Positions 7,368-15,683 of a stretch of DNA of 64,000 bases are shown one piece after another; the stretch's first letter is position 1, and each line of letters begins with the position of its first letter. The notes below the pieces were generated by a model. It ran no database searches and had not been told where the DNA came from. It saw only the letters and a list, made by a program, of their open reading frames with translations. The translations under genes and the position numbers were made by a program. Source of the stretch: a phage; sequence record NC_101838.1; one strand, 5' to 3'.

Positions 7368-7449
7368 AAATCATTGACACGCTGCAAAATTTAAGTAAAC
7401 TAGACACAAAAGGCGGGAATGTTTCCCGCCAGCACAAAGGAAAAAGATC

Positions 7450-7845
7450 ATGAATAAGAACGTACGCCGCATCATGAACGAACTGGCAAACGATGAAAAA
7501 ATTATTGATATGCATTTGGTCAACATTTGCCGCCGTTGTGTAACATATAACAACCGCGCCGCAAAAGCGCGTGAGATGAACGCAAAAGGCACCTTAAAGC
7601 CCTTTCAGGTGGTTGTAAAATCTATAACTAGCGCAGCAGGCCAGGCGCAGGACCACAACAACGAGAGCGCTAATATTGATCCGTCTTACGTAATGAAACG
7701 GATCCGGACTTGCAAGAATAAAGAGCAGGTATATAACGTCATAGATTGGCTGGACTCCCTGGGCGATGTGGTTTACAATAGGTTTTCTGCAGCTATCGAG
7801 ATCCAGCTTGACAGATTGGACGGGAAAGTACTAAAAACTTATTGA
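7450..7845 (+). CDS. hypothetical protein (131 aa)
   Basis: ORF preceded by a leader hairpin (ggcgggaatgtttcccgcc) and aaaggaaaaag SD-like motif. Confidence 0.55.
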   Translation: MNKNVRRIMNELANDEKIIDMHLVNICRRCVTYNNRAAKAREMNAKGTLKPFQVVVKSITSAAGQAQDHNNESANIDPSYVMKRIRTCKNKEQVYNVIDWLDSLGDVVYNRFSAAIEIQLDRLDGKVLKTY

Positions 7846-7846
7846 G

Positions 7847-7892
7847 TTTATTTTTAGATGGCCTTGACACCAGGGCCATCAATAAAGTAAAC
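7847..7892 (+). promoter_or_regulatory. repeated intergenic cassette: promoter -35 embedded in a stem-loop (copy 1)
   Basis: gtttatttttagatggccTTGACAccagggccatcaataaagtaaac; inverted repeat gatggcc/ggccatc encloses TTGACA. Confidence 0.5.
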
Positions 7893-7925
7893 TAACCACA
7901 GTTGAGCGGAAAAGGAGGCTTAAAG

Positions 7926-8045
7926 ATGAGCACTACACGCCAGCACACAAAGGTAACCATCATCGTTTGCATCATTGGGTACATCCTGGCGCAAATGTTG
8001 ATGGGTAGCGCCAACGGTGTCGCAAAATTTTTCTTAAACTTTTAA
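7926..8045 (+). CDS. small hydrophobic peptide (39 aa)
   Basis: Strong SD (aaaaggagg) before ATG; hydrophobic core IIVCIIGYILAQMLMG; below track cutoff. Confidence 0.35.
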   Translation: MSTTRQHTKVTIIVCIIGYILAQMLMGSANGVAKFFLNF

Positions 8046-8073
8046 TTGACAAGCTAACTTAAATCGATATAAT
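8046..8073 (+). promoter_or_regulatory. sigma70-like promoter (TTGACA-16-TATAAT)
   Basis: Perfect consensus hexamers upstream of the ORF at 8125. Confidence 0.6.
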
Positions 8074-8124
8074 AAGCACATAAACGGGAAAACTTCCCAG
8101 AACACACAAAAGGAGAAAAACACC

Positions 8125-8466
8125 ATGACTACTATGACCGCCTCAGAAAAAGCTATGCAGATCGCTGAACTGAAAAAACAGATCGCAGACCTTGAGAATA
8201 AGATCGATAACTTTGAAATCGACGAGGACAAGTACGACGAAAACTATGATGAATGGTTAGACGAGATCTACGGCGAAATTATGATCGGAAACATTTCTTT
8301 TCTTCCGTCGCGTATCCTCAAGGAGCTAGATCCTATCGCTTACCGCTGCGGATTTAGCGACTACATCGACAGCCTGGATATTGAGGACGATGAAGAATAC
8401 CAGGAATTACAGACAGAGTTAGAAGAAGCAAAAGAAGAGCTTGCGGAGCTGGAAGAAAACGAGTAA
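8125..8466 (+). CDS. hypothetical acidic coiled-coil protein (113 aa)
   Basis: ORF with aaaaggagaaaaac leader; highly acidic, heptad-like N-terminus. Confidence 0.55.
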   Translation: MTTMTASEKAMQIAELKKQIADLENKIDNFEIDEDKYDENYDEWLDEIYGEIMIGNISFLPSRILKELDPIAYRCGFSDYIDSLDIEDDEEYQELQTELEEAKEELAELEENE

Positions 8467-8513
8467 GCTTATTTTTAGATGGCCTTGACACCAGGGCCAT
8501 CAATAAAGTAAAC
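8467..8513 (+). promoter_or_regulatory. repeated intergenic cassette: promoter -35 embedded in a stem-loop (copy 2)
   Basis: Identical to the 7847 copy over about 45 nt. Confidence 0.5.
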
Positions 8514-8555
8514 TTTATACTGTTAACACTGAACTAATGCATAGGAGTTAAAACC

Positions 8556-8801
8556 ATGGCAGCACTAATCACCAAATATTATGCCCCTACCAACACCAAA
8601 AGCGCCCGTATCATGGTAAAAGGCTTCGGACGTAAAAAGGTGTACACCTGGGATTATGCCTTAGACATGGAAGACAACTACACCAACGCAATGACCGATT
8701 TTATTAATGAACTAAATAAGCAGATCTTGACAAGTTATAAAGTGACCGATATTGCTTATATAGGTGAAGGCGGGATCTGTTTTGTAGGCATTGTGAAATA
8801 G
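8556..8801 (+). CDS. hypothetical protein (81 aa)
   Basis: ORF preceded by taggagttaaaacc. Confidence 0.55.
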   Translation: MAALITKYYAPTNTKSARIMVKGFGRKKVYTWDYALDMEDNYTNAMTDFINELNKQILTSYKVTDIAYIGEGGICFVGIVK

Positions 8802-8850
8802 TTATTTTTTCGGTGGTCCTGGCTGCAGGGCCATCTATAAAGATAATTTA
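8801..8850 (+). promoter_or_regulatory. degenerate copy of the stem-loop promoter cassette
   Basis: gttattttttcggtggtcctggctgcagggccatctataaag shares the tatttttt...gggccatc.ataaag skeleton with the other copies. Confidence 0.35.
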
Positions 8851-8875
8851 TCAACACCATGAAAGGAGAAAGTAC

Positions 8876-9229
8876 ATGATCAGCGGGGCTAGTTTTATTA
8901 TTGGCGCTATTGCTACGGCTTTAATTGTAAACAAGATCCAATCTAAAAACGAAAAAGATAGCAACGCGCTCACAGAATACCCATTTTGGGTATTCAACGA
9001 CAACGAAGACTACATAATCAAGTACAAAGATGAGAGAGGCGACCAGGTAACACCGCGACCGATCCCAGCTTACAAGATGCAGGAAACACTATACCGCCTA
9101 AAGGCCGGAGGCGCAAAGATCGTAGACTTTTGGGGATATGATTGCAAGGATCAGGAGGTCATAAAACGTCGTATCCGGGCGATTCAGGCAAATATTGAAA
9201 TTAGTAAAGGGGAAATTTATGAAAATTAA
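8876..9229 (+). CDS. hypothetical membrane protein (117 aa)
   Basis: Internal ATG with gaaaggagaaag SD; N-terminal transmembrane segment (ISGASFIIGAIATALIV). Confidence 0.5.
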   Translation: MISGASFIIGAIATALIVNKIQSKNEKDSNALTEYPFWVFNDNEDYIIKYKDERGDQVTPRPIPAYKMQETLYRLKAGGAKIVDFWGYDCKDQEVIKRRIRAIQANIEISKGEIYEN

Positions 9230-9416
9230 TTTCGAAAAAATTGTAAAGCGCCCCCACGATTCCGAAGAGCTGCCGGAACGCCGCCAGCGTAACAATAAAC
9301 TGAATAAACCGAAAAGGTTCGGGAAGATCTGGAGGAATCACTATGATCGCAAATTACCGGGCCTGCTTTTGGAACGTGAACGACAGGCGGAACGATACCG
9401 CCACAAAGGCAAATAA
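9219..9416 (+). CDS. hypothetical basic protein (65 aa)
   Basis: Internal ATG with aaagggg SD-like motif; Arg/Lys-rich; followed by a terminator. Confidence 0.45.
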   Translation: MKINFEKIVKRPHDSEELPERRQRNNKLNKPKRFGKIWRNHYDRKLPGLLLERERQAERYRHKGK

Positions 9417-14191: not shown

Positions 14192-14200
14192 GGTTGGCAA

Positions 14201-14416
14201 ATGATCACTAACAAAACAGGCAAAACAGAATTTTTACGCAACTTACAGATCGGTAAGTCTGAGATCTGGTATTGCACTAAAACACCCCGTGACGAAATGA
14301 AAGACTTCACCGCCACGCTGCAACGGGTAAAGATATCCATCACGCAGAAAAAGGCCTTACTAGTGGTGGAAGGTGAGATCCCCCAAACCGTTGTTATAGT
14401 TGAGCGTACAGCATAG
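14201..14416 (+). CDS. hypothetical protein (71 aa)
   Basis: ORF immediately downstream of the small peptide. Confidence 0.45.
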   Translation: MITNKTGKTEFLRNLQIGKSEIWYCTKTPRDEMKDFTATLQRVKISITQKKALLVVEGEIPQTVVIVERTA

Positions 14417-14507
14417 TTTAATTTATACAGATACCTTAAAATTAACCAACAAAGCATAAACAGGCGGTTACCGCCGCCTTAAACGTAGCAGAAAGAGGAT
14501 AGACACA

Positions 14508-14792
14508 ATGAAAAAGATGATCGCAGTTGTTGCCCTGGTTGTTGGACTTAATGCGCCTGTAATGGCTAAAGAGCTGGCAAAAGAGGTTAATCTAACGGAT
14601 ATTCATGCCGTCAATCAAATAGGGGTTACTTATCGCTTATGCCTTGCCGCTAAAACTTTTAAGGACGGCACAACAGAGTACTACGGCTTCGAGGGTGTCC
14701 GGTGCGGTGAACTTGCTCGCGACCTTAAAGAAGATCCAGACCTGGAAGATCTGCCCATCACCGTAAATGGTAAAGCTTACGTAAACCGTTAA
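14508..14792 (+). CDS. small secreted protein (94 aa)
   Basis: N-terminal signal-peptide-like segment MKKMIAVVALVVGLNAPVMA; agaaagaggatagacaca SD. Confidence 0.55.
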   Translation: MKKMIAVVALVVGLNAPVMAKELAKEVNLTDIHAVNQIGVTYRLCLAAKTFKDGTTEYYGFEGVRCGELARDLKEDPDLEDLPITVNGKAYVNR

Positions 14793-14794
14793 CC

Positions 14795-14929
14795 ATGAGA
14801 AAGATAATCATCACCTTGGGGATTGTGGCGGGATCGCTGGCGCTCTTTCTCCTTATGGTTAGGTATGTGCTGATCGGTATTGTCCTGGTAGTCAGCGATC
14901 TGTTGGAAACGGTTGGCACCTTGTTTTAA
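14795..14929 (+). CDS. small membrane peptide (44 aa)
   Basis: ATG 3 nt after the upstream stop; entirely hydrophobic; below track cutoff. Confidence 0.3.
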   Translation: MRKIIITLGIVAGSLALFLLMVRYVLIGIVLVVSDLLETVGTLF

Positions 14930-14941
14930 AGAGCGGTAAAA

Positions 14942-15133
14942 ATGAATATCGAACAAGTTAGAAAGGTATTGGCGGTACTGCGTTATCATAATCATAGAAA
15001 GGTCATAGACGATCCTGATTATGTCGATTCAAGCCTGGAAGGGGATACACTACAAGCCATAAGTAACATGCAAGAATTGCTAAAGCGCATGACAGAGAAA
15101 AACCGACCGGACTACATAGGCGAAAAAATATAA
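14942..15133 (+). CDS. hypothetical protein (63 aa)
   Basis: ORF followed by a terminator. Confidence 0.45.
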   Translation: MNIEQVRKVLAVLRYHNHRKVIDDPDYVDSSLEGDTLQAISNMQELLKRMTEKNRPDYIGEKI

Positions 15134-15150
15134 TCCTTATAAACTACAAA

Positions 15151-15178
15151 ACAGGGCTTGCAATGGTCCTGTTTTTTG
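15151..15178 (+). terminator. intrinsic terminator
   Basis: Hairpin acagggcttgcaatggtcctgt followed by tttttt. Confidence 0.55.
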
Positions 15179-15263
15179 TTATACTTGTTTCACGGCAGGC
15201 ACCTGGCGACGGGGGGGGGAGACAATCACCGGGTGTGCCTGCTATATAAAAACTATAAAAACC

Positions 15264-15292
15264 GTTGACATCTGCCAGGTGGTGGGGTAGCA
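15264..15292 (+). promoter_or_regulatory. sigma70-like promoter (TTGACA-17-TAGCAT)
   Basis: Hexamers upstream of the ORF at 15349; leader hairpin follows. Confidence 0.45.
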
Positions 15293-15348
15293 TTTATCTC
15301 GAAGGGGGCAAAAGCGCCCACACAACAACTGGAAGAGAGGAAAACGCC

Positions 15349-15621
15349 ATGTTAAGCTGGATTAACCAAGAAGTTGAATCACGTTTTAATGCTATTTGGG
15401 ATCTCATCGAAAAAGAGGACGGAACATCAAGCCCTTATCTCAATAATCTTGAATTCCATTTCGTGGAAGCGATGAACGCAGAACATGATCACGAAGGTGG
15501 TGCGGATGAATTCGCTAAAGGATATGGCTTCAACAATGCCAACGAAATGATCGAGGCGGTTGTACTCCAGGCTGAGGAAGATTATCAATTAAAAACGCTT
15601 GAATTCTGCCGCCGTAAGTAA
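15349..15621 (+). CDS. hypothetical protein (90 aa)
   Basis: Internal ATG with ggaagagaggaaaacgcc SD. Confidence 0.5.
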   Translation: MLSWINQEVESRFNAIWDLIEKEDGTSSPYLNNLEFHFVEAMNAEHDHEGGADEFAKGYGFNNANEMIEAVVLQAEEDYQLKTLEFCRRK

Positions 15622-15683
15622 TAAGATAATGACACGGGCCAAAAGGCCCACTAAACAAAAACCACATAAAGAGGAAAAACATC

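Follow-up and report, generated by a model that had tools for sequence, protein, structure and literature searches.

Why do small genes in one region of a phage genome carry, one after the other, a short GC-rich hairpin just upstream of the ribosome-binding site, and what could such a hairpin do? The question is raised by a stretch of phage DNA of 64,000 nucleotides (nt) from record NC_101838.1 (the window in the following, to which all coordinates refer), whose source is an rV5-like coliphage (Vequintavirus). A first-pass annotation had described such leaders upstream of at least ten early genes between 7412 and 15660. Our analysis shows that the hairpins belong to a larger unit, in which an AT-rich tract, a near-consensus sigma-70 promoter, the hairpin, an A-rich leader, a strong Shine-Dalgarno (SD) sequence and the ATG follow each other in this order. 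The architecture is real, non-random and conserved, and it is described best as a series of early expression cassettes that resemble PeSLs (promoter-early stem-loops), the composite cassettes of a sigma-70 promoter and a G/C stem-loop located between genes of unknown function in the T4-type phages RB49/phi1, PST and nt-1 (Arbiol et al. 2010, PMC2839356; Comeau et al. 2014, PMC4122927). A literature search found no prior description of these hairpin leaders, and the rV5 genome paper, in which promoters and terminators were predicted, does not mention them.

Architecture of the leader cassettes

The key feature of the cassettes, overlooked by the first-pass annotation, is the promoter 5' of the hairpins. 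We found eight units on the + strand between 6000 and 17000 that consist of a promoter, a hairpin 5-14 nt after the -10 element and an SD sequence with ATG, whereas 200 dinucleotide shuffles gave an expectation of 0.135 +/- 0.36 and a maximum of two. The distance from the end of the -10 to the start of the hairpin shows two sharp peaks in the gene cluster, one at +10 to +14 (seven cases) and one at -40 to -36 (six cases); the latter corresponds to a separate 48-bp repeat with a hairpin around the -35. Altogether, 8 of 12 hairpins are located 9-13 nt downstream of a sigma-70-type -10 whose TTGACA is perfect or nearly so. For two others the promoter is weak or damaged (15599-15627 with an 8/12 match, and 14003-14035 with a 21-nt spacer), and a promoter is absent at the remaining two, 13458 and 14462. 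The folding z-score is -2.2 or lower in nine of the twelve leaders.

All ten starts listed previously are ATG codons of plausible small genes with a hairpin upstream, as confirmed by a mechanical hairpin scan and RNA folding, and two further members with starts at 11999 and 13167 had been missed. In these twelve cases the hairpin lies 19-34 nt upstream of the start codon. The G-rich arm always comes first and the C-rich arm second, with stems of 4-9 bp. The loops comprise 3-7 nt and not 4-6 nt as described before, and two of the hairpins (8086 and 15304) are weak in this genome. The leader following the hairpin (10-25 nt) is A-rich, poor in G and U and unable to fold; the spacer had been called CA-rich, but its composition is dominated by A (A 0.58, C 0.22, G 0.10, T 0.10 versus 0.31/0.20/0.23/0.26 in the region). 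A strong SD sequence is present in every leader at a variable distance of 8 to 20 nt from the hairpin, yet the proposed AAAGAGGA is found in only six of the twelve, the others containing AGGAG or AAGGA. According to predicted folding, the SD region has a probability of being unpaired of ~0.8-0.9 in most leaders. The statement that the hairpins are not followed by a U-run was correct: on the + strand, between 0 and 3 of the 8 nt that follow the stem are T, and the sequence is typically ACACAAAA.

The promoters and hairpins, all on the + strand, are the following.

7374-7401, +: promoter of cassette 1, TTGACA-16-TAAACT; -35 invariant in 11 relatives
7412-7430, +: hairpin GGCGGGAA-TGT-TTCCCGCC, 10 nt after the -10; -14.6 kcal/mol, z -3.9; leader 7431-7449; ATG 7450
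8046-8073, +: promoter TTGACA-16-TATAAT, 12/12 match; annotated as P192 in rV5
8086-8098, +: weak hairpin GGGAA-AAC-TTCCC, 12 nt after the -10; 5 bp, -5.5 kcal/mol, z -1.4; ATG 8125
9901-9928, +: promoter TTGACA-16-TATACT, from the promoter scan
9939-9957, +: hairpin GGCGGGAA-AAC-TTCCCGCC, 10 nt after the -10; z -5.2; ATG 9986
10618-10645, +: promoter TTGCAA-16-TATATT, from the promoter scan
10656-10674, +: hairpin GGGGCAA-GACGT-TTGCCCC, 10 nt after the -10; ATG 10699
11915-11942, +: promoter TTGCAA-16-GATAAT, from the promoter scan
11953-11967, +: hairpin GGGGA-GCTAA-TCCCC, 10 nt after the -10; ATG 11999; newly added member
13082-13109, +: promoter TTGCAT-16-GATAAT, read from the sequence
13121-13134, +: hairpin GGGGG-GCGG-CCCCC, 11 nt after the -10; ATG 13167; newly added member
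13458-13476, +: hairpin TGGGGCC-GAAAA-GGCCCCA, intercistronic, no recognisable promoter; ATG 13506
13736-13763, +: promoter TTGACA-16-TAATAT, from the promoter scan
13777-13791 (extendable to 13774-13794), +: hairpin GGGGC-AACAA-GCCCC; ATG 13817
14003-14035, +: TTGACA-21-CATAAT with too long a spacer, from the alignment of relatives
14041-14064, +: hairpin with core GGTGGA/TCCGCC; -14.0 kcal/mol; ATG 14087
14462-14479, +: hairpin AGGCGGT-TACC-GCCGCCT, promoter-less; ATG 14508
15265-15293, +: promoter TTGACA-17-TAGCAT, annotated as P168 in rV5
15304-15319, +: weak, degenerate hairpin with 4+2 bp in this genome; ATG 15349
15599-15627, +: weak promoter-like TTGAAT-17-TAAGAT, 8/12 match
15636-15649, +: hairpin GGGCC-AAAA-GGCCC, 8 nt after TAAGAT; z -3.5; ATG 15684

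Some of the irregular members look different in relatives. The 21-nt spacer at 14003-14035 is shared by rV5, nom and phage 203, whereas a canonical spacer of 17 nt is found in three relatives (A6-1, ECP2309 and A13b; L009, L011 and L012 in the comparison); this promoter has probably been weakened here by a 4-nt insertion. The counterpart of the degenerate hairpin at 15304 reads GGGCA-AAAG-TGCCC in most relatives, and the counterpart of the 14462 hairpin in phage ESCO5 likewise lacks a promoter. A possible weak extra hairpin was seen at 6667-6679.

The position of the transcript start can be estimated from promoter geometry. Most copies have a pyrimidine-purine step at the 7th-8th nt after the -10. 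With RNA polymerase starting there, the hairpin would begin at about +4 or +5 and the predicted unpaired 5' tail would be 2-6 nt long, mostly 3-5 nt. Thus, the hairpin would be transcribed as a 5'-proximal structure of the mRNA, extending from about +4 to about +25.

The 48-bp repeat, TTATTTTTAGATGGCCTTGACACCAGGGCCATCAATAAAGTAAACT, is present at 7846-7893, 8467-8514 and 12201-12248, with a diverged copy at 8801-8848. The repeat contains a hairpin of 10 bp, one pair being T.G, around the -35 of a TTGACA-18-TAAACT promoter. Canonical U-tract terminators are located at 9425-9444, 11859-11879, 12995-13024, 15148-15175 and 16529-16545 and the cluster is thereby divided into some five units; the first four terminators are each followed by a promoter within ~160 nt. 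Three of these five terminators (9425, 11859 and 12995) have a C-rich 5' arm, unlike the leader hairpins with their G-rich arm first. The only hairpin that passes the U-tract test on the + strand, 11089-11108, was not counted as a member.

Selection on the cassettes and changes of their structure

Divergence was counted per site class between the window and 11 close relatives projected onto it (L001, L002 and L006-L014). The -35 was unchanged in 558 site comparisons (0.000), and low values were obtained for the SD sequence (0.032), the stem (0.038) and the -10 (0.045). With codon position 3 as neutral yardstick (0.078), the stem evolves at about half the neutral rate, and loop (0.122) and post-hairpin spacer (0.079) evolve at or above it; the value is 0.076 for the promoter spacer and 0.102 for the gap between -10 and hairpin, one of the least conserved segments. 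These rates show purifying selection on the -35, the -10, the stem and the SD sequence and none on loop or spacer. Since the spacer changes at or above the neutral rate, only its composition can matter.

Compensatory base changes, which the first-pass annotation had expected of a functional hairpin, were found among orthologues, so that it is structure rather than sequence that is conserved. The 13121 hairpin presents a series of GGGGG/CCCCC, GGGGG/CCTCC and GGAGG/CCTCC. At 10656, the stem GGGGCAA/TTGCCCC has been remodelled in L008 and L010 to GGGGCGAG/CTTGCCCC with a G.U pair, and a C to T change in the 9939 hairpin of L002 gives a U.G wobble. The stem of the 15636 hairpin is invariant, its loop being AAAA, GAAA or GGGA. 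Five independent substitutions retain pairing only as G.U on the + strand, the strand of the mRNA, versus one on the - strand, and the fold of eight variants is favoured by at least 3 kcal/mol on the + strand, that of none on the - strand. This bias suggests that the structure is read in the mRNA sense. We relied on orthologues, and not on a covariance model or on pair counts between paralogues, because MAFFT alignments of the paralogous leaders and hairpins placed stems of unequal length out of register.

The loops change in an unusual manner. Six hairpins differ between relatives in that one version of the loop is the exact reverse complement of the other, all within genomes that are less than 10% diverged: TGT to ACA at 7412 (L002, L007), GACGT to ACGTC at 10656 (L011-L013), GAAAA to TTTTC at 13458 (L010), TTACCG to CGGTAA at 14462 (L012, L013) and AAATAT to ATATTT at 11089; the sixth case was seen when L016:10252 was compared with L004:9179. 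Such exact inversions leave both identity and orientation of the loop free, which argues against loop-specific recognition, and a site for a loop-specific regulator is unlikely. They also indicate that the palindromes take part in events at the DNA level, and their repeated occurrence provides direct evidence of such activity of these small palindromes in phage evolution.

Occurrence in other phages and rearrangements at the cassettes

Many Vequintavirus genomes, among them rV5, FFH2, slur16 and nom, share 94-97% identity with the interval 7000-16200, and the counterpart of this interval in the rV5 reference comprises open reading frames (ORFs) 164-198, small hypothetical genes that are all encoded on one strand. 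Ten genes from behind the hairpins were tested; they match only PHROG families of unknown function and gave no Pfam match. An Rfam scan of 6000-17000 at a permissive threshold revealed no relevant family; its sole match, Clostridium-PBP, is chance-like and below threshold (36.8 bits versus a gathering score of 94.4).

A blind scan showed that the layout is repeated many times on the gene strand of the distant relatives ESCO5 (Phapecoctavirus) and alia (Justusliebigvirus) and of three contigs from IMG/VR (65-70% protein identity). There it consists of TTGACA-16/17-TAnnAT, 9-13 nt (ttaccacgta or ttatcacatag), the hairpin GGCGGGAA(A/G)TGGTTTCCCGCC or a related one, a short A-rich spacer, the SD sequence and ATG. 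This recurrence means that the spacing from -10 to hairpin is conserved across two subfamilies. In slur16 and FV3, cassettes of the window have been replaced by cassettes of the type found in the distant relatives. A scan of IMG/VR for TTGACA-N16/17-TAnnAT-N9-12-GGCGGGAA gave 46 hits, of which two contain the exact TTCCCGCC arm and two a near-match. These four resemble cassettes of the rV5/phi92 type; the remainder are chance hits or belong to an unrelated recurrent element. This unrelated element, TTGACA..gtgTATAATaggggtggttgGGCGGGAAtagataat followed by very AT-rich DNA, recurs in contigs of mostly 105-170 kb (one of 72 kb), namely L021, L030, L033, L036, L037, L039, L041, L043, L049, L057, L059, L062 and L064.

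Insertions and deletions between close relatives often meet the cassettes. L001 lacks 7894-8465, having lost what separates two copies of the 48-bp repeat, with the junction within the repeat, and homology to both L007 and L001 ends within the hairpin 14041-14064. L009, L011 and L012 contain an extra gene that is flanked by a duplicated SD/start segment (14071-14102), ORF166 of rV5 is inserted together with a duplicated leader (15650-15677), and L002 lacks 14011-14437, the interval between two similar leaders. Several junctions, but not all, are located in repeats, hairpins or leaders; some are at gene ends.

In the window, genes are encoded on the + strand from 1 to ~16.6 kb, on the - strand from 19 to 58 kb and again on the + strand from 58 to 64 kb. 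Outside the cassette region, some further features were noted. In the gene cluster of the - strand, at 20611-20630, 24867-24887, 40610-40623 and 43661-43683, a few promoter-like sites lie only 2-10 nt upstream of terminator-like hairpins with T-rich tails, which looks like a promoter-terminator coupling of a different kind. No gene was called by the SD-based ORF scan in the ~630 bp of 59600-60226, which contain a block very rich in AT, the sequence CTGTCCGTGATACGGACAC twice and a half-site related to it; this stretch may correspond to the 'non-coding' box on the map of rV5, to an origin or to a regulatory region. Seven tRNA calls are clustered at 62103-62915: Arg-tct, Tyr, Ser, Thr, Met, Pro and an odd 99-nt call with a 4-nt anticodon.

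Possible roles of the hairpin and known systems

What might the hairpin do? Its fixed position 9-13 nt after a sigma-70 -10 means that no other structure would precede it in the transcript, which supports the first-pass idea of a 5' stabiliser. Host RNA polymerase would start 7-8 nt after the -10, and each early mRNA would carry the hairpin as its first structure; in read-through RNA the same hairpin would be intercistronic. It could limit the 5'-end-dependent decay of primary transcripts by RppH and RNase E and also the decay from 5' ends cut in the AU-rich RNA derived from promoters. In addition, it could act as a folding insulator that leaves the ribosome site single-stranded regardless of the upstream sequence. 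Most likely, the hairpin would thereby raise and equalise the expression of each cassette. As a side effect, the conserved cassette would supply short homology for swaps of gene modules. We put the probability that the hairpin protects the message or insulates the ribosome site at about one half.

Several points weigh against this reading. RppH and RNase E need at least two unpaired nt at the 5' end and prefer at least three (PMC8833179); with a predicted tail of 3-4 nt, which could still let both enzymes engage, protection would be partial at best, and the stabiliser idea is weakened. RNase E scanning can pass simple stem-loops (PMC9943677), which makes it hard to explain how the promoter-less hairpins at 13458 and 14462 would protect anything. 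The two weak hairpins are a further difficulty, a mid-stem pair is broken in three singleton variants, and other promoters of the same gene cluster (6908, 9587, 16013 and the family with the -35 hairpin) do without a hairpin of this kind. A literature search for transcript mapping or a transcriptome of Vequintavirinae found none.

One alternative is an attenuator or terminator, which would either damp read-through from upstream or stop antisense transcription by means of the T-rich stretch behind the hairpin on the - strand. For PeSLs, stopping of upstream transcription has been proposed as one role besides modular shuffling, and a PeSL stem-loop in front of lacZ reduced expression as strongly as rrnB T1 (PMC2839356). 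In a lenient scan, 7 of the 12 hairpins here are terminator-like on the - strand, for instance 7430-7412 followed by TTTTGTGT. The leader hairpins share with intrinsic terminators that they are short, GC-rich and intergenic, but they lie downstream and not upstream of promoters, they have no coding-strand U-tract, and a fixed spacing to the -10 would not be needed. With 0-3 T after the stem, intrinsic termination is not expected on the + strand and was rejected, in agreement with the first-pass annotation; genuine U-tract terminators stand elsewhere in the cluster (9425, 11859, 12995 and 15148). The T-richness on the - strand stems from the poorly conserved gap between -10 and hairpin, a proper U-run is found in one copy only, and the SD-based ORF scan found no - strand genes in the hairpin region. 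A role in termination is therefore unlikely. We consider it unlikely, too, that the hairpin is a protein-binding site. This could be an RNA operator, a boxB-like antitermination site or, as DNA, a palindromic operator with its centre near +13 by which early promoters are shut off. Such a site would agree with the fixed position relative to the promoter and with the stem GGCGGGAA/TTCCCGCC, which three window copies have in common with most copies in the distant relatives, and a palindromic DNA operator would not be altered by loop inversion. However, other copies have unrelated stems (GGGGCAA, GGGGAG, GGGGCC, GGGCC), half-sites change by compensatory pairs, and the G.U bias on the + strand is not expected of a site in duplex DNA. 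Together with loops that flip and evolve at or above the neutral rate and the variable distance to the SD sequence, the differing stems speak against the previously suggested operator for one sequence-specific translational regulator. The nut boxB of lambda and the put sites of HK022 are likewise small promoter-proximal RNA hairpins of early transcripts, and some loops here are A-rich (GAAAA, AAAA) as well. The put sites need two larger stem-loops. A boxB-type site was rejected, since the loops are variable and invert and no boxA-like CGCTCTT adjoins any hairpin; a conserved loop is missing here and the stems differ between copies.

The rearrangements could also be the whole story: the inverted repeats and conserved leaders would promote recombination or template switching of gene modules, as proposed for PeSLs (PMC2839356), and have no role as RNA. 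This would account for the six loop inversions, the L001 junction in the 48-bp repeat, the end of L007 homology within 14041-14064, the duplicated leader or SD segments that flank the insertions in L009 and rV5, and cassettes common to different subfamilies. Neither the fixed spacing of 9-13 nt nor the + strand G.U bias nor an unfoldable A-rich leader is needed for recombination, though, several breakpoints lie in the leader or SD sequence or at gene ends and thus outside the hairpins, and shuffling might be a by-product of any repeated regulatory sequence; we regard a role confined to DNA as improbable. More doubtful still is that the hairpin, with its fixed position after the predicted transcript start and its conservation in two subfamilies, is no passive structure but a recognition mark, which could be a 'self' tag that exempts early phage mRNAs from phage-stimulated RNase E, or a folded-DNA recombination site like integron attC. 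Srd of phage T4 activates RNase E. The rV5 genome paper reports an Srd homologue; an attC-like site would be compatible with the frequent exact loop inversions and with indels at cassette boundaries. Processing by RNase III, as between the early mRNAs of T7, had been suggested and would suit intergenic hairpins in a presumed early region. RNase III substrates are duplexes of ~20 bp (about two helical turns), the T7 sites being long irregular hairpins. Stems of only 4-9 bp are too short, and this explanation can practically be discarded.

If the hairpin protects the message or insulates the ribosome site, its closest functional counterparts would be 5' stabilisers. Work of 1992 that is listed in PMC3997798, by Emory and by Bouvet and Belasco, is said to have found that 5'-terminal stem-loops stabilise E. 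coli mRNAs. Examples are the 5' UTRs (untranslated regions at the 5' end) of ompA and papA and the leader of phage T7 gene 10, which is used in pET vectors. Similar to these, the messages described here would begin with a GC-rich hairpin, after which come an open leader and a strong SD sequence, and structure rather than sequence is conserved. In the classic examples, however, the hairpin is 0-2 nt from the 5' end, and 4 nt would be the limit for a stabiliser of this kind, whereas 3-5 unpaired nt are predicted here.

With the cassettes, we can present a concrete and testable annotation for the early-gene control regions of the rV5-like and the phi92/phAPEC8-like phages, among which there are several candidates for use in therapy and biocontrol. 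The annotation shows the position of promoters, probable message starts and bases under selection. In addition, the cassettes represent compact and naturally diversified promoter/5' UTR parts that could be reused for expression in E. coli.

The closest structural counterparts are the PeSLs. A homologue in RB49 of the protein encoded by the gene at 15349, noted in the rV5 record, was not recovered by tblastn at E <= 1e-3, and no cassette common to RB49 and the window could be demonstrated. PeSLs fall into five positional subclasses, and among these are types whose stem-loop overlaps the -35 and types whose stem-loop follows the -10 (PMC2839356). Both types occur in the window, and the 48-bp repeat matches the first of them. 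As in PeSLs, an AT-rich tract precedes the -35 of a consensus sigma-70 early promoter, a stem-loop made of a G-run and then a C-run lies next to the promoter, and the 3' end carries an SD sequence with start codon. Furthermore, a variable region contains many copies between small genes whose function is unknown, and several, though not all, indels between close relatives join at cassettes. The cassettes differ from PeSLs in lineage (Vequintavirinae and Stephanstirmvirinae, with no sequence homology seen) and in the position of the stem-loop: in RB49 (74 kb, analysed with the same script), most stem-loops lie in the interval from -35 to -10, span the -10 or stand far upstream and have a T-run, and few are at +10, whereas the main class here follows the predicted transcript start and has no U-tract. 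For this reason, the terminator role proposed for PeSLs does not fit the main class. Every sequence-level feature of PeSLs is nevertheless found in the window cassettes, which resemble these known elements and are not a new kind of element. They extend the idea of the promoter-stem-loop cassette beyond T4-type phages and add a variant in which the stem-loop would be located in the mRNA leader.

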